Assembly: GCF_024298765.1 (NCBI RefSeq) | Contig: NZ_CP101210.1 | Origin: Escherichia coli | GTDB lineage: Bacteria; Pseudomonadota; Gammaproteobacteria; Enterobacterales; Enterobacteriaceae | Length of the DNA: 64,000 nucleotides | Reading direction: 5' to 3' (one strand) | Part shown: piece after piece, positions 8,340 to 16,662 of the stretch | How the letters are laid out: each line of letters opens with the position of its first letter | Numbering within the stretch: position 1 is the stretch's first letter | The notes under the pieces: generated by a model | What the model was told of the DNA's origin: nothing | The model's database searches: none | What the model saw: only the letters and a program-made list of their open reading frames with translations | Translations under genes and position numbers: made by a program

Positions 8340-8727
8340 AACTACTTTTCACCTTTTTTGTGCGTCAAATCGTCGACGCGACGTGAACACGCGAAACTCA
8401 CCTGCATAATGATGAGCAATTTCAGCGGTTTTTAACAGGCCGATTCTGCCCTTAATTCTGATGGGCGTGTTAGAAAAAAATGTGGTACAACAACTCAGGC
8501 AACACGCAAACGATTTACTCGTCGTATTTCAAGTTGCATATGCTGCGGCTACGTTCGTTCACCCCAGTTACTTACTGTTGTAAGCTCCTGGAGTTCACTC
8601 GCTTGCCGCCTTCCTGCAACACGAAATCCATAGAGTAAACAAACATCACCTTTCAGTGCGCTATTGCAGCCGCCTGAAAGAACAGTGTATCGACCTACAT
8701 CACAGACCGCAGGAAAGGGTCAATATA

Positions 8728-11700
8728 ATGATTCCACAGATTTCCCAGGCACCCGGCGTCGTTCAACTGGTGCTTAATTTTTTGCAAGAGCTGGAGCAAC
8801 AAGGTTTTACCGGCGATACGGCGACAAGTTATGCCGATCGTCTGACAATGTCGACCGACAACAGTATTTACCAACTTCTCCCCGATGCGGTGGTATTTCC
8901 GCGTTCAACCGCAGATGTGGCGCTTATAGCCCGTCTTGCCGCGCAGGAACGCTATTCATCGCTGATCTTTACCCCCCGCGGCGGCGGCACCGGCACTAAC
9001 GGTCAGGCGCTCAACCAGGGGATTATTGTTGATATGTCCCGCCATATGAACCGCATCATCGAAATTAACCCTGAAGAGGGCTGGGTGCGCGTTGAGGCCG
9101 GGGTGATAAAAGATCAACTCAATCAGTACCTGAAACCGTTCGGCTACTTTTTTGCGCCGGAACTTTCGACCAGCAACCGGGCAACGCTCGGTGGGATGAT
9201 CAATACCGATGCATCCGGTCAGGGATCGCTGGTCTATGGCAAAACGTCAGATCACGTACTTGGCGTACGCGCGGTGTTGTTGGGGGGCGATATTCTCGAT
9301 ACGCAACCTTTACCCGTCGAACTGGCGGAAACGCTGGGTAAATCCAATACCACAATCGGGCGAATTTATAACACGGTTTATCAACGTTGCCGTCAGCAAC
9401 GCCAGTTAATCATCGACAACTTCCCCAAGCTTAACCGCTTTCTTACCGGTTACGATCTGCGTCATGTCTTTAACGATGAGATGACCGAGTTCGACCTGAC
9501 GCGCATTCTGACGGGTTCAGAAGGGACGCTGGCCTTTATTACCGAAGCGCGACTGGATATTACGCGCTTGCCTAAAGTGCGCCGTCTGGTGAACGTCAAA
9601 TATGACTCTTTTGACTCCGCACTGCGTAACGCGCCGTTTATGGTTGAGGCGCGGGCGCTTTCGGTAGAGACGGTGGACTCAAAAGTGCTGAATCTGGCGC
9701 GGGAAGATATTGTCTGGCATTCCGTCAGCGAGTTGATTACCGATGTGCCAGACAAAGAGATGCTCGGGCTGAACATTGTGGAATTTGCTGGTGATGATGA
9801 GACGCTGATTGATGAGCGAGTAAATGCACTCTGTGCGCGGCTGGATGAACTTATCGCCAGTCAGCAAGCAGGTGTGATCGGCTGGCAGGTATGCAGTGAG
9901 CTGGCAGGTGTTGAGCGTATTTATGCGATGCGCAAAAAAGCTGTCGGCCTGCTTGGCAATGCCAAAGGTGCCGCTAAGCCAATTCCGTTTGCTGAGGATA
10001 CCTGCGTACCGCCGGAACATCTGGCCGATTATATTGCTGAATTTCGCGCGCTGCTCGACAGCCACGGCTTAAGCTACGGTATGTTTGGTCACGTCGATGC
10101 AGGTGTCTTGCACGTCCGTCCGGCACTGGATATGTGCGATCCGCAACAAGAGATTTTGATGAAGCAAATCTCTGATGATGTAGTGGCGCTTACCGCGAAA
10201 TACGGTGGTTTGTTGTGGGGCGAACACGGCAAAGGTTTTCGTGCCGAATACAGCCCGGCGTTTTTCGGTGAGGAACTTTTTGCAGAACTGCGTAAAGTGA
10301 AAGCGGCATTTGACCCGCATAACCGACTCAACCCAGGGAAGATTTGCCCGCCAGAAGGTCTCGATGCACCGATGATGAAAGTGGACGCGGTGAAGCGCGG
10401 TACATTCGACCGGCAGATCCCCATTGCGGTACGCCAGCAGTGGCGCGGTGCGATGGAGTGTAACGGTAACGGTTTATGCTTCAACTTTGATGCCCGCAGT
10501 CCGATGTGCCCGTCGATGAAGATTACCCAGAACCGGATTCATTCACCGAAAGGACGCGCAACGCTGGTGCGTGAGTGGCTGCGTTTGTTGGCAGATCGCG
10601 GCGTTGACCCACTCAAACTGGAACAAGAACTGCCTGAATCCGGCGTCAGTTTGCGGACGTTAATTGCCCGCACGCGCAATAGCTGGCATGCGAATAAAGG
10701 CGAATATGACTTCTCACACGAAGTCAAAGAGGCGATGTCGGGCTGTCTGGCCTGTAAAGCGTGTTCGACCCAGTGCCCCATCAAAATTGATGTGCCGGAG
10801 TTTCGCTCTCGTTTTCTGCAGCTCTATCACACCCGTTATTTACGCCCGCTTCGCGACCACCTCGTTGCTACGGTCGAGAGCTACGCACCGCTGATGGCAC
10901 GCGCGCCGAAAACCTTTAACTTCTTCATTAACCAGCCGCTGGTGCGCAAACTCTCGGAAAAACATATCGGCATGGTTGATTTGCCACTGCTGTCAGTCCC
11001 CTCGCTACAACAACAAATGGTGGGGCATCGCTCGGCGAATATGACGCTGGAACAGCTTGAAGCTCTCAATGCAGAGCAGAAAGCGCGCACGGTGTTGGTG
11101 GTGCAAGACCCCTTTACCAGCTATTACGATGCGCAAGTGGTGGCGGATTTTGTCCGTCTGGTCGAAAAATTAGGTTTCCAGCCTGTGCTACTGCCATTTT
11201 CGCCAAATGGCAAAGCCCAGCATATCAAAGGCTTTCTTAATCGTTTTGCGAAGACGGCGAAAAAGACGGCGGATTTCCTCAACCGTGTGGCGAAGCTGGG
11301 GATGCCAATGGTGGGCGTCGATCCGGCGCTGGTACTTTGTTATCGCGATGAATATAAACTGGCTCTGGGCGAGGAGCGTGGCGAGTTTAACGTCTTACTG
11401 GCGAATGAATGGCTGGCAAGCGCACTTGACTCACAGCCAGTGGCTACAGTCAGCGGTGAATCATGGTATTTCTTTGGTCACTGTACCGAAGTTACCGCTT
11501 TGCCGGGCGCGCCAGCACAATGGGCTGCGATATTTGCCCGTTTTGGCGCGAAACTGGAAAATGTCAGCGTGGGGTGCTGCGGCATGGCAGGGACTTACGG
11601 ACATGAAGCGAAAAACCATAAAAATTCGCTCGGGATCTATGAGTTATCCTGGCATCAGGCGATGCAGCGACTGCCGCGTAATCGCTGTCTGGCGACCGGA

Positions 11701-11784
11701 TATTCCTGCCGTAGCCAGGTAAAACGGGTCGAAGGCACGGGGGTACGCCATCCTGTGCAGGCTTTACTGGAGATTATTAAATGA
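8728..11784 (+). CDS. ydiJ: FAD-linked oxidoreductase with C-terminal Fe-S/CCG domain (1018 aa; reported D-2-hydroxyglutarate dehydrogenase)
   Basis: ORF 8656-11784; start moved to Met25 (MIPQISQ...) to give the 1018-aa length I recall for YdiJ. Confidence 0.9.
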   Translation: MIPQISQAPGVVQLVLNFLQELEQQGFTGDTATSYADRLTMSTDNSIYQLLPDAVVFPRSTADVALIARLAAQERYSSLIFTPRGGGTGTNGQALNQGIIVDMSRHMNRIIEINPEEGWVRVEAGVIKDQLNQYLKPFGYFFAPELSTSNRATLGGMINTDASGQGSLVYGKTSDHVLGVRAVLLGGDILDTQPLPVELAETLGKSNTTIGRIYNTVYQRCRQQRQLIIDNFPKLNRFLTGYDLRHVFNDEMTEFDLTRILTGSEGTLAFITEARLDITRLPKVRRLVNVKYDSFDSALRNAPFMVEARALSVETVDSKVLNLAREDIVWHSVSELITDVPDKEMLGLNIVEFAGDDETLIDERVNALCARLDELIASQQAGVIGWQVCSELAGVERIYAMRKKAVGLLGNAKGAAKPIPFAEDTCVPPEHLADYIAEFRALLDSHGLSYGMFGHVDAGVLHVRPALDMCDPQQEILMKQISDDVVALTAKYGGLLWGEHGKGFRAEYSPAFFGEELFAELRKVKAAFDPHNRLNPGKICPPEGLDAPMMKVDAVKRGTFDRQIPIAVRQQWRGAMECNGNGLCFNFDARSPMCPSMKITQNRIHSPKGRATLVREWLRLLADRGVDPLKLEQELPESGVSLRTLIARTRNSWHANKGEYDFSHEVKEAMSGCLACKACSTQCPIKIDVPEFRSRFLQLYHTRYLRPLRDHLVATVESYAPLMARAPKTFNFFINQPLVRKLSEKHIGMVDLPLLSVPSLQQQMVGHRSANMTLEQLEALNAEQKARTVLVVQDPFTSYYDAQVVADFVRLVEKLGFQPVLLPFSPNGKAQHIKGFLNRFAKTAKKTADFLNRVAKLGMPMVGVDPALVLCYRDEYKLALGEERGEFNVLLANEWLASALDSQPVATVSGESWYFFGHCTEVTALPGAPAQWAAIFARFGAKLENVSVGCCGMAGTYGHEAKNHKNSLGIYELSWHQAMQRLPRNRCLATGYSCRSQVKRVEGTGVRHPVQALLEIIK

Positions 11785-12191
11785 TATGGAAACGAAAAAT
11801 CACCCTGGAAGCACTGAATGCCATGGGTGAAGGAAACATGGTGGGGTTGCTGGATATTCGCTTTGAACATATTGGTGATGACACCCTTGAAGCGACAATG
11901 CCAGTAGACTCGCGGACAAAGCAGCCTTTCGGGTTGCTGCATGGAGGGGCATCCGTGGTACTGGCCGAAAGTATCGGTTCCGTTGCCGGTTATTTATGTA
12001 CCGAAGGTGAGCAAAAGGTGGTTGGTCTGGAAATCAATGCTAACCACGTCCGCTCGGCACGAGAAGGGCGGGTGCGCGGCGTATGCAAACCGTTGCATCT
12101 CGGTTCGCGTCACCAGGTCTGGCAGATTGAAATCTTCGATGAGAAAGGGCGTTTGTGCTGTTCGTCACGATTAACGACCGCCATTTTGTGA
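11781..12191 (+). CDS. menI: 1,4-dihydroxy-2-naphthoyl-CoA hydrolase (hotdog-fold thioesterase)
   Basis: 136-aa ORF recognised as MenI/YdiI; ATGA overlap with ydiJ stop. Confidence 0.93.
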   Translation: MIWKRKITLEALNAMGEGNMVGLLDIRFEHIGDDTLEATMPVDSRTKQPFGLLHGGASVVLAESIGSVAGYLCTEGEQKVVGLEINANHVRSAREGRVRGVCKPLHLGSRHQVWQIEIFDEKGRLCCSSRLTTAIL

Positions 12192-12290
12192 CGTTGTCAC
12201 CAGAAAAGTGTGACGCATATTGCTTTTGGTCATTATCTGCACAGTAAACGGTGGTATACTGTGCAGGTCTTGTCTAAAAGCGAGGATGCT

Positions 12291-12479
12291 ATGTCTACTC
12301 AACTTGATCCCACCCAGCTGGCCATTGAATTTTTACGCCGTGACCAGAGCAATCTTTCACCTGCCCAATATCTCAAACGTCTGAAACAACTAGAACTTGA
12401 ATTTGCTGACCTGCTTACTCTCTCTTCTGCTGAATTAAAAGAAGAAATCTACTTTGCCTGGCGTCTGGGCGTGCATTGA
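12291..12479 (+). CDS. ydiH: Uncharacterised small protein YdiH (62 aa)
   Basis: ORF 12210-12479 trimmed to internal Met MSTQLDPTQ... to match the 62-aa length I recall. Confidence 0.7.
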   Translation: MSTQLDPTQLAIEFLRRDQSNLSPAQYLKRLKQLELEFADLLTLSSAELKEEIYFAWRLGVH

Positions 12480-12685
12480 TCCTGACTTAATGCCGCAATT
12501 TTGCCAAATCGACCTGGATTAACCTCCGTCCAGGTTCGATGACCTTCTTAATACTGCTTATCTATCCGCCTGATATTGTTCAAAAATAATACTAATCGCA
12601 GTTTGTGTTAAAACGGCGGGTTAGCTTTATGAGATTATTCTTATCGCCCCTTCAAGAGCTAAGCCACTGAGAGTGCCGGAGATAA

Positions 12686-12750
12686 GCGCCGGATGGGGTA
12701 GAAACCCTTAAGCCTGTGTCGCACAGACTTAAGGGTTTTCTTATTTCTGA
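12686..12750 (+). ncRNA. rydB: Candidate sRNA (position expected for rydB) ending at an intrinsic terminator; boundaries approximate
   Basis: Strong hairpin AAACCCTTAAGCCTGTGTCGCACAGACTTAAGGGTTTT followed by TCTTATTTCT on the + strand, between ydiH and the suf promoter where rydB is mapped in K-12; strand and 5' end not verified. Confidence 0.35.
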
Positions 12751-12967
12751 ACGCTGCACTTTTTTACCTATCTCTTAAATAGTCATTTTCAATACAACTT
12801 TTTCTTTTTCATCACAGCCTTAATGCTCCTTAGATAATAATCATTATCTAACAATGAGATACCTAATTCTTAGCGTGCCTGTTAACCCACACATCAGGGT
12901 CTATGCTTATTAAAAGCAGGAAAAAAGCATGTTTTACGGTAAAGCCCCTGCGTTTGCTGGGTTGAAC

Positions 12968-13027: not shown

Positions 13028-13396
13028 ATGGACATGCATTCAGGAACCTTTAATCCACAGGATTTCGCCTGGCAGGGCTTAACGCTGACACCCGCAGCCG
13101 CTGTCCACATCCGCGAGCTGGTGGCAAAGCAGCCGGGTATGGTCGGCGTGCGCTTAGGCGTGAAGCAAACGGGCTGCGCGGGCTTTGGCTATGTGCTCGA
13201 CAGTGTTAGCGAGCCGGACAAAGACGATCTGCTGTTTGAACACGACGGCGCGAAGCTGTTTGTCCCGCTGCAAGCGATGCCGTTTATTGATGGCACGGAA
13301 GTCGATTTCGTTCGTGAAGGACTTAATCAGATATTCAAATTTCACAACCCTAAAGCCCAGAATGAATGTGGCTGTGGCGAAAGCTTTGGGGTATAG
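13028..13396 (+). CDS. sufA: Fe-S cluster A-type carrier protein SufA
   Basis: 122-aa ORF recognised as SufA, complete with its own stop codon. Confidence 0.95.
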
Positions 13397-13404
13397 GCGG
13401 TACT

Positions 13405-14640
13405 ATGTCTCGTAATACTGAAGCAACTGACGATGTCAAAACCTGGACCGGCGGCCCGCTGAATTATAAAGAAGGATTCTTCACCCAGTTAGCCACCGAT
13501 GAGCTGGCAAAGGGGATAAACGAAGAGGTGGTGCGCGCAATTTCGGCGAAGCGTAATGAGCCGGAGTGGATGCTGGAGTTTCGTCTCAACGCCTATCACG
13601 CATGGCTGGAGATGGAAGAACCGCACTGGTTGAAAGCGCACTACGACAAGCTGAATTATCAGGATTACAGCTACTACTCGGCACCATCGTGCGGTAATTG
13701 TGACGACAACTGCGCGTCTGAACCCGGCGCGGTGCAGCAAACTGGCGCGAACGCCTTTTTAAGTAAAGAGGTGGAGGCGGCGTTTGAGCAGTTGGGCGTT
13801 CCCGTGCGGGAAGGCAAAGAGGTGGCAGTGGATGCCATTTTCGACTCTGTTTCGGTTGCCACTACTTATCGCGAAAAACTGGCGGAGCAGGGAATTATTT
13901 TTTGTTCCTTTGGCGAGGCGATCCACGATCACCCGGAACTGGTGCGTAAATATCTCGGCACCGTGGTGCCGGAGAATGACAACTTCTTTGCCGCACTTAA
14001 TGCGGCGGTAGCCTCTGACGGTACGTTTATTTATGTGCCTAAAGGCGTGCGTTGCCCGATGGAACTTTCCACCTATTTTCGCATTAACGCGGAAAAAACC
14101 GGGCAGTTTGAGCGCACCATTCTGGTGGCCGACGAAGACAGCTATGTCAGCTACATTGAAGGCTGTTCCGCTCCGGTGCGTGACAGCTATCATAATGGCG
14201 AATACCTCATTCATGGCACCAGTGCGCCGGACAGCGTCGGTTTGCGCGTCAGTTCGGGCTGTATTCGCATGAATGCACCGGATATTAAAGCTTTATTCTC
14301 CAGCGTGCGGACGGGAACACCGGTGAAAGTGATCAACGAACCGGTGAAATATTCCGTGGAACCTAACGGGATGCGTTATGTTGAAGTACATCGACCACTA
14401 TCGGCAGAAGAACAGCAGAACGTTCAGACAATGCCGTACACGCTGCCAGCAGGCTTTACGCAATTTAAAGACAATAAGGCTGTAGATCAGAAGTTAGTCG
14501 ATAAAGCGTTGTATCGTCGGGCAGGGTATCCGGTTGCGGTGAGCAGTGGAGCAACTCCCGCAGCCAGCAATGCGCCTTCAGTAGAGTCAGCGCAGAATGG
14601 GGAACCAGAGCAAGGGAATGTGTTACGCGCGACGCAGTAG
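13405..14640 (+). CDS. Chimeric in-frame ORF (411 aa): SufB residues 1-262 fused to the C-terminal 149 residues of L,D-transpeptidase LdtE (YnhG); apparent deletion product, junction near 14190/14191
   Basis: Translation [17 protein letters not shown]...[13 protein letters not shown] is SufB, then [28 protein letters not shown]...NVLRATQ is the YkuD-type catalytic domain and tail of LdtE; lpp follows immediately as it does downstream of ldtE in K-12; no sufC, sufD, sufS or sufE anywhere in the window. Confidence 0.85.
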
Positions 14641-14655
14641 CGGTAAATAGCAGGC

Positions 14656-14686
14656 AAAAAAATGGCGCACAATGTGCGCCATTTTT
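14656..14686. terminator. Bidirectional intrinsic terminator shared by lpp and the convergent upstream ORF
   Basis: AAAAAAATGGCGCACAATGTGCGCCATTTTT: GC-rich hairpin flanked by an A-run and a T-run. Confidence 0.8.
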
Positions 14687-14702
14687 CACTTCACAGGTAC
14701 TA

Positions 14703-14951
<249 letters not shown>

Positions 14952-15193
14952 CTAGATTGAGTTAATCTCCATGTAGCGTTACAAGTATTACACAAAGTTT
15001 TTTATGTTGAGAATATTTTTTTGATGGGAAGGCACTTATTTTTGATCGTTCGCTCAAAGAAGCATCGAACGCTGGGTTTTAGATAAAAAAATTGAGAGAA
15101 AACAGGATGCTTCCATCGGATTCATCTTAGATAAAGTGAGATTATATAGTGAAATCCGATTTGATTTTTTATTGCTTCTGGTTATCGATTAAA

Positions 15194-15218
15194 TAAAAAA
15201 AGCGCCCATCAGGGCGCT
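15194..15218 (-). terminator. pykF intrinsic terminator
   Basis: Hairpin AGCGCCC-ATCA-GGGCGCT preceded on + by an A-run, which is a T-run on the - strand, just past the pykF stop. Confidence 0.7.
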
Positions 15219-15249
15219 TCGATATACAAATTAATTCACAAAAGCAATA

Positions 15250-16662
15250 TTACAGGACGTGAACAGATGCGGTGTTAGTAGTGCCGCTCGGTACCAGTGC
15301 ACCAGAAACCATAACTACGACATCACCTTTGTGTGCCAGACCGCTCTGCAGAGCCAGTTCTTTACCCAGACGGTAGAAGTCATCAGTAGAAGTGATCTCT
15401 TTAACCAGCTGCGGCACAACGCCTTTGCTCAGTACTAACTGGTGAGCTGTTTTTTCGTTGGTGGTCAGTGCCAGGATGGTGGCATCCGGGAAGTATTTAC
15501 GTACTGCGCGAGCAGATTTACCGCCCTGAGTAGCAACCACGATCAGTGGAGCATCCAGTTTTTCAGCAGTTTCAACGGCACCACGGCATACCGCTTCGGT
15601 AATACGCAGTTTACGGTTGTCATTGTTGAACTCGAGACGGCTGTTCATCACGCGGTCTGTACGTTCGCAGATGGTCGCCATGATAGAAACCGCTTCCAGC
15701 GGGTATTTACCTTTTGCGGATTCACCAGACAGCATCACTGCGTCAGTACCGTCGAGGATGGCGTTTGCAACGTCACCGGCTTCTGCGCGAGTCGGGCGTG
15801 GGTTTTTGATCATGGAATCCAGCATCTGGGTCGCAGTGATAACAACTTTACGTGCACGGATACATTTTTCGATCATCATCTTCTGGGCGAAGATAACTTC
15901 TTCTACCGGGATTTCTACACCCAGGTCGCCACGCGCAACCATGATGCCGTCAGAGGCTTCGAGGATTTCGTCGAAGTTGTTGAGGCCTTCCTGGTTTTCG
16001 ATTTTGGAGATGATGTGGATGTTTTCGCCGCCGTGCGCTTTCAGGTGCTCACGGATTTCGATAACGTCAGAACGCTTACGAATAAAGGAAGCAGCAACAA
16101 AGTCTACGCCTTGTTCGCAACCAAAGATCAGGTCCTGTTTGTCTTTTTCAGCCAGTGCTGGCAGGGCAATGGAAACGCCAGGCAGGTTCACACCTTTGTT
16201 TTCGCCCAGGTCGCCGTTGTTCAGCACTTTACAGATAACTTTGTTACCTTCAATAGCGGTAACTTCCATACCGATCAGACCGTCGTCAACCAGTACGGTG
16301 TTGCCAACAGACAGGTCAGTAGTGAAACCTTCATACGTTACCGCAACCATTTCGCTGTTGCCGATAACAGATTTATCAGTAGTGAAAGTAAAGGTCTGAC
16401 CCGCTTTCAGAGAAACGTCGTTACCGCCTTCCAGTTTCATGGTGCGGATTTCCGGACCTTTGGTATCAAGCAGGATAGCGGCGGTTTTACCAGTTTTGCT
16501 CATCACGTTGCGCAGATTCTGAATGCGCTGACCGTGTTCTGCATAGTCACCATGAGAGAAGTTCAGACGCATAACGTTCATGCCAGCGTCCAGCATTTTA
16601 GCTAACATCTCTTCAGATTCGGTTTTCGGTCCGATGGTGCAAACAATTTTGGTCTTTTTCAT
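15250..16662 (-). CDS. pykF: Pyruvate kinase I (470 aa)
   Basis: ORF 15250-16878 trimmed to [40 protein letters not shown]..., recognised as PykF. Confidence 0.95.

Follow-up and report, generated by a model that had tools for sequence, protein, structure and literature searches.

The hairpin and the adjoining U-rich tract between ydiH and sufA of E. coli most probably form the Rho-independent terminator of the rydB unit, the primary transcript of which is later shortened to an RNA of 61 nt. This element had been predicted as a strong intrinsic terminator at positions 12686-12750 of the window, the whole 64-kb stretch of DNA analysed here, and folding with RNAfold confirmed both its coordinates and the length of its stem (16 Watson-Crick pairs). 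The spacings given in the original prediction were also correct, with the stem starting 221 nt after the end of ydiH and the ATG of sufA lying ~280 nt past the tail. The genes on the + strand of the window were ordered as ydiJ (8656-11784), menI (11781-12191), ydiH (ATG at 12291, stop codon ending at 12479), rydB and sufA (13028-13396). Both order and orientation matched K-12, in which the counterparts of ydiJ, menI, ydiH and sufA are all encoded on the minus strand. The ydiH-sufA spacer shared 99% identity with that of K-12 in a pairwise alignment and was found in 5421 of 5426 complete E. coli genomes. No feature was annotated within this spacer in PGAP-annotated E. coli genomes, and rydB appeared only in the curated K-12 record.

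The stem-loop occupied 12701-12739 on the + strand, with a 5' arm at 12701-12718, a UCG loop at 12719-12721 and a 3' arm at 12722-12739 as folded by RNAfold. Besides the Watson-Crick pairs, the stem contained one G.U pair at its base and one C.A mismatch at 12713/12727, and its order from the base was G.U, AAA/UUU, CCC/GGG, UUAAG/CUUAA, the C.A mismatch and CUGUG/CACAG. The 65-nt stretch 12686-12750 folded at -26.1 kcal/mol (z = -3.97), and none of 200 shuffled sequences was as stable. An inverted-repeat search recovered the same structure as two 17-nt arms (12702-12718 and 12722-12738) that were 94% complementary and 3 nt apart, making it the best long hairpin in the window bar the lpp terminator. 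Both strands of the window were furthermore scanned for any single hairpin running into a T-rich 9-mer. When the 119 sites with stem energies of -10 kcal/mol or lower were ranked, the rydB hairpin was the fourth strongest (-21.3 kcal/mol), in a range like that of the lpp terminator. A standard promoter/terminator scan did not report it, probably because the stem rule of that scan forbids an internal mismatch. The U-rich tract UUUUCUUAUUUCU (12736-12748, + strand) directly followed the last G-C pair, after which the tail UUUUCUUAU contained seven U in nine positions; the first four U of the tract can also pair with GAAA at 12701-12704. The element thus displayed several features of a terminator, namely a stable stem (-21 to -26 kcal/mol, z of about -4) with three C-G pairs just above its A-U base, a U-rich tract that follows the stem directly in the transcribed direction, and a co-oriented position at the 3' end of the rydB unit that was conserved with rydB in 26 of 26 sequences. 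A longer fold in which the E. coli tail CUUAUUUCU paired with the conserved RydB loop GGAGAUAAG was rejected as a conserved feature, since the tail differed in other genera.

Immediately upstream of the hairpin, the Rfam model of rydB (RF00118) matched 12646-12706 on the + strand over its full 61 positions, with a score of 81.6 bits against a gathering score of 50 (E = 1.2e-18). The model excludes the hairpin apart from 6 nt of the 5' arm, and the matched interval was identical to K-12 in the alignment. The rydB gene in the K-12 RefSeq record (b4430, 1764713-1764780, minus strand in K-12) aligned to 12634-12701 on the + strand at 99% identity, and therefore the hairpin starts where the annotated gene stops, on the same strand. 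With these two placements, the suggestion that rydB is located at this position was substantiated. The 68-nt annotation was off the mapped ends of the RNA by 12 nt on the 5' side and 5 nt on the 3' side, while the Rfam boundaries fitted both.

The 3' end was taken from published Term-seq data (Adams et al. 2021, PMC7815308, Supplementary file 1), which list a single one for rydB, at minus-strand position 1764708. In LB, this end was represented by 2.17 million reads at OD 0.4 and by 4.14 million at OD 2.0, and in M63 by 2.79 million (PMC7815308). The coordinate convention was read from the printed sequence context, which ends ...GGGGTAGAAACC at its 51st base, and was checked on the tRNA aspV. 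Mapped by alignment, the dominant in vivo 3' end of RydB (...GGGGUAGAAACC-3') fell at 12706 on the + strand. This is the last position of the Rfam match, and it places the end 5 nt within the first arm of the hairpin. In number, the reads resembled those of a tRNA (3.5 million for aspV), and they exceeded those of lpp more than tenfold (PMC7815308). SdsR, RprA, DsrA and SgrS end in their U tracts in the same tables (PMC7815308), and therefore Term-seq does detect terminator-proximal ends. The original prediction had envisaged a small transcript ending at about 12750, which did not agree with the dominant end at 12706 in all three conditions, in a table that lists the strongest peak per 100 bp.

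The 5' end was located by a dRNA-seq start of Salmonella RydB, reported with a promoter string ...TATGAGATTATTCTTATG whose last G is +1 (Ramachandran et al. 2014, PMC3963941, Table S8). By homology, this G corresponded to G12646 of the window. A candidate extended -10 element (TG-a-GATTAT, 12630-12638, + strand) was found within the conserved block TATGAGAyTATTCTTAT and ended 7 nt before G12646; judged from its sequence and position, it is presumably the promoter element of rydB. The 5' end and strand of the RNA had been considered impossible to fix from sequence, yet the conserved extended -10 and the Salmonella start together put +1 at G12646. Thus, with ends at 12646 and 12706, the mature RydB sRNA is 61 nt long (12646-12706, + strand) and lacks the hairpin, its extent being given by Rfam, its 5' end by the Salmonella start site and its 3' end by the K-12 Term-seq data. 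The closing helix of RydB (12647-12650/12695-12698) carried compensatory changes. A further block, TGTGTTAAAA (12604-12613, + strand), was nearly invariant in Escherichia, Salmonella and Citrobacter and was followed by ~12 nt that varied across genera. It lies ~20 nt upstream of the rydB -10, which is too distant for a standard -35, and might instead be bound by a regulator. A 13-codon open reading frame (ATG at 12629, TGA at 12668-12670) spanning the promoter and the 5' half of RydB was discarded as a candidate gene, with its ATG upstream of the transcription start site and its frame broken by a 1-nt deletion in Salmonella.

The distribution of this unit was examined in 80 enterobacterial loci collected by a SufA-based scan with one genome per species, using blastn and a covariance model built from RydB plus the hairpin. 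As a result, RydB and the hairpin were identified in 25 of the 80 loci, belonging to Escherichia, Salmonella, many Citrobacter, two Leclercia, Silvania and Pseudenterobacter. They were always full length, and the hairpin directly followed the RydB body in all 25 RydB loci; the model detected this pair nowhere else in the 80. The covariance model detected no RydB beyond the 25 blastn loci, Enterobacter, Klebsiella, Kluyvera and others being negative within 2.5 kb upstream of sufA. In the 26-sequence alignment, 13 of the 18 hairpin pairs showed compensatory changes and 93.8% of the cells were paired. The structure of RydB and the hairpin as a whole was 96% paired, compared with 29-55% when the partners were slid by one to three columns, and none of 500 shuffles reached the observed values. 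This covariation indicates that the structure of the hairpin has been selected rather than having arisen by chance. The stem was 15-21 pairs long in the orthologues. The tail on the + strand contained seven to eight U in nine positions in Escherichia, Salmonella and most Citrobacter, against two to four on the minus strand; with its U tract on the rydB strand only, the hairpin is therefore oriented for transcription in the direction of rydB. In four loci (L014, L021, L024 and L028, from Citrobacter koseri, two Citrobacter sp. and Pseudenterobacter), the stem was wholly different in sequence (GAACGGTCAGCG...), although it was of similar length, lay ~55-95 nt after the 5' end of RydB and followed an unchanged RydB body. 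The U tract of these C. koseri-type loci was poorer, with about five U in nine positions. Something beyond classical termination may therefore also be under selection.

The genetic context analysis indicated which of the neighbouring genes the hairpin accompanies. In seven Citrobacter loci, ydiH ended ~2 kb upstream of rydB while rydB and the hairpin were intact. In C. sedlakii (L007, 185-2037), a 297-aa gene and a LysR-type regulator were situated between ydiH and rydB, and the unit lay ~380 nt from sufA. In two Salmonella loci, rydB and the hairpin stayed beside ydiH. A convergent 448-aa transporter-like gene (L020, 728-2074, minus strand) was located between the hairpin and sufA in S. diarizonae, ending ~24 nt from the hairpin, and S. 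arizonae (L025) carried ~0.8 kb of extra sequence in the same interval. Seven further loci had rydB and the hairpin intact with ydiH outside the sequence examined. In Intestinirhabdus, ydiH was next to sufA and RydB was absent, and the ydiH-sufA spacer contained an unrelated terminator. The hairpin thus moves with rydB, and not with ydiH or sufA, and it covaries; it is therefore best regarded as rydB's own Rho-independent terminator.

These contexts also bear on the proposal that the hairpin serves mainly to terminate the ydiJ-menI-ydiH operon and to insulate the suf promoter, with rydB lying upstream by coincidence. Past ydiH, indeed, no strong terminator-like element precedes the hairpin: the ydiH-rydB spacer contains just one other hairpin, which lacks a U tract and lies in a stretch that folded no better than its shuffles (z = -1.7). 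Moreover, the terminator in the RydB-less spacer of Intestinirhabdus suggests that termination at this place is useful. Nevertheless, ownership by the operon appears very unlikely, because the hairpin tracks rydB and is kept where ydiH is ~2 kb away (the seven Citrobacter loci) or outside the examined sequence (the seven further loci), and because a convergent gene parts rydB and the hairpin from sufA in Salmonella. The original prediction had left a choice among an sRNA terminator, an operon terminator or both. Its first option was supported by covariation and linkage, while the synteny of Citrobacter and Intestinirhabdus spoke against assigning the hairpin to ydiJ-menI-ydiH. Halting read-through from ydiH and rydB towards the suf control region would plausibly be a side effect in E. 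coli and not the reason for conservation. The hairpin might also work in both directions and stop transcription arriving from the suf side, given that the A-rich sequence on its 5' side (GAAA) is the counterpart of the U tract, that the RNA of the minus strand is just as stable when folded (-26.3 kcal/mol) and that the convergent 448-aa transporter gene of Salmonella ends ~24 nt away. Such a double role is scarcely to be expected, however, since the minus-strand tail held only four U in nine positions in Escherichia (UUUCUACCC) and two in nine in Salmonella and Citrobacter (UUCCGGCCC), and E. coli has no convergent gene here, sufA being co-directional. A chance palindrome or a protein-binding site acting at the DNA level, to which the palindromic core CCCTTAAG...CTTAAGGG of the hairpin could be ascribed, is extremely improbable. 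No shuffle folded as well (z of about -4), and the pairing survived both compensatory changes and the full replacement of the stem in four loci, which points to selection on the folded strand and not on a DNA motif.

For the preferred reading, termination at the U tract followed by trimming, the following course of events is proposed. RNA polymerase would start at G12646 from the extended -10 promoter and run through the 53-nt structured RydB body, a short linker and the 17-pair stem-loop. Release of the RNA is expected within the U tract at about 12742-12745, which would yield a primary transcript of ~97-100 nt. This transcript would then be shortened to the very abundant species ending at 12706. 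As the accumulating RydB ends at 12706, the stem-loop must be removed except for the first 5-6 nt of its 5' arm, and we infer that this end arises by processing of the longer precursor. Lying between ydiJ-menI-ydiH/rydB and the suf control region, the hairpin should also stop read-through from both. Against termination at the U tract of rydB, it may be argued that no E. coli 3' end was listed there and that the dominant end lay inside the stem, in a table restricted to the strongest peak per 100 bp. Under this curation (Adams 2021), a weaker RydB end near 12742-12745 would be hidden, so its absence argues against retention of the hairpin and not against termination.

The manner in which the hairpin is removed allows other weightings of its function. 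It might have been selected for RNA processing, the stem being cut by the double-strand-specific nuclease RNase III after 12706 to free the 61-nt RydB, with termination secondary or absent. This would agree with the position of the main RydB 3' end, which lay 5 nt within the 5' arm under all three conditions, and with the maintenance of 15-21 pairs even where the U tract has decayed. A staggered cut after 12706 and after 12735 would leave the pairs 12705-12735 and 12706-12734, which are C-G in E. coli and G/C in 26 of 26 sequences. By the in vivo rule reported for RNase III in Altuvia 2018, both positions lying between the staggered cuts are paired, usually with a G-C among them, and the predicted cut-site pairs of RydB fit this rule. 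Yet the G-C pairs beside the U tract are needed by a terminator as well, so this feature does not discriminate RNase III cleavage from termination. Furthermore, RNase III accommodates a helix of roughly 22 bp (Altuvia 2018), and a substrate would be expected to span about two turns (20-22 bp), whereas the rydB stem has 17 pairs plus a mismatch; most orthologues have textbook U tracts, and a literature search found no paper linking RydB with RNase III. Processing as the selected function is on balance unlikely. Alternatively, the hairpin could be degraded exonucleolytically, the enzyme stalling 7-8 nt past the closing helix of RydB, whose last pair ends at 12698. We also put forward, as a tentative possibility, that the hairpin is a conserved module to be excised during maturation, an endonucleolytic step with RNase III as the leading candidate yielding a 61-nt RydB free of terminator and U tail at tRNA-like levels. 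The persistence of a long stem beside a decayed U tract would thereby be accounted for, and the maturation of RydB would follow that of stable RNAs and not that of typical Hfq-dependent sRNAs.

Several other features were noted around this locus. Compared with K-12, the window is without 5053 bp (K-12 1758169-1763221), the junction being at 14192|14193 within an open reading frame at 13366-14640. Across the junction, sufB continues in frame into the C-terminal portion of ldtE, and sufC, sufD, sufS and sufE are gone, which leaves a defective suf operon downstream of the hairpin in this sequence. No microhomology was seen at the junction, and none of the 5426 complete E. coli genomes contained it in one piece. 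It could have arisen by a rare deletion or by engineering, or be an error of the assembly. The motif CCTATCTCTTAAATAGT at 12767-12783, ~20 nt past the tail of the rydB terminator, was conserved in Escherichia and partly in Citrobacter, and we take the OxyR site of the suf promoter to lie at about these positions. Lee, Yeo and Roe are said to have placed the OxyR site, in 2004, ~200-240 nt upstream of the sufA start site. The menI-ydiH spacer (12215-12290) was filled by a very stable imperfect hairpin (-46.3 kcal/mol, z = -7.5) reaching the ribosome-binding region of ydiH, for which the inverted-repeat search gave arms at 12222-12249 and 12254-12281. Its inner stem CTGCACAG/CTGTGCAG was conserved for the most part, with a few compensatory changes among 13 sequences. 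At the end of pykF (15191-15380, minus strand), a match to GcvB scored below threshold (31.5 bits against a gathering score of 42) and was probably driven by the terminator. The lpp terminator (14657-14687, with 14-nt perfect arms) gave weak matches to several sRNA families on both strands. The GcvB match and those at the lpp terminator look like chance or terminator-only similarities.

The rydB gene has been known since 2001, and the hairpin is an already known feature, the terminator of rydB having been noted by others. Salmonella rydB was listed as 105 nt (Sittka et al. 2008), which would be long enough for a terminator, and rydB was flagged with a Rho-independent terminator in the RepRanger paper. 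The TERMITe supplementary data contained no rydB entry. The RefSeq K-12 coordinates of rydB disagree with the mapped ends of the RNA, which corresponds to 12646-12706 in the window, the same extent as in the Rfam model. Loss of the terminator hairpin sets RydB apart from other enterobacterial sRNAs and bears on its not being a typical Hfq-binding RNA. The position of the hairpin just upstream of the suf control region also means that constructs and deletions made there should account for it.

When compared with known systems, the unit corresponds to RydB (RF00118; b4430; also known as tpe7 or IS082) in locus, strand and the synteny ydiH - rydB - sufA. However, the hairpin is part of neither the Rfam model nor the K-12 annotation, and the mature RNA retains only the first 5-6 nt of the 5' arm. 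Canonical sRNA terminators such as those of SdsR, DsrA, RprA and SgrS share with the rydB hairpin a G/C-rich base, a short loop, a U tail, an A-rich 5' flank and a location directly after a short non-coding gene. The rydB stem, with 17 pairs, is long for a terminator. In contrast to SdsR, DsrA, RprA and SgrS, which keep their hairpin and end in the U tract, RydB ends in the 5' arm and has neither hairpin nor U tail. In tRNA operon transcripts, the terminator is removed after transcription. RNase III is involved in the maturation of DicF (cited in Altuvia 2018). By analogy, RydB may resemble these stable-RNA precursors, the tRNA operon transcripts and DicF, in being an abundant, short and structured RNA with its mature 3' end upstream of the terminator, a likeness that concerns the positions of the ends only.
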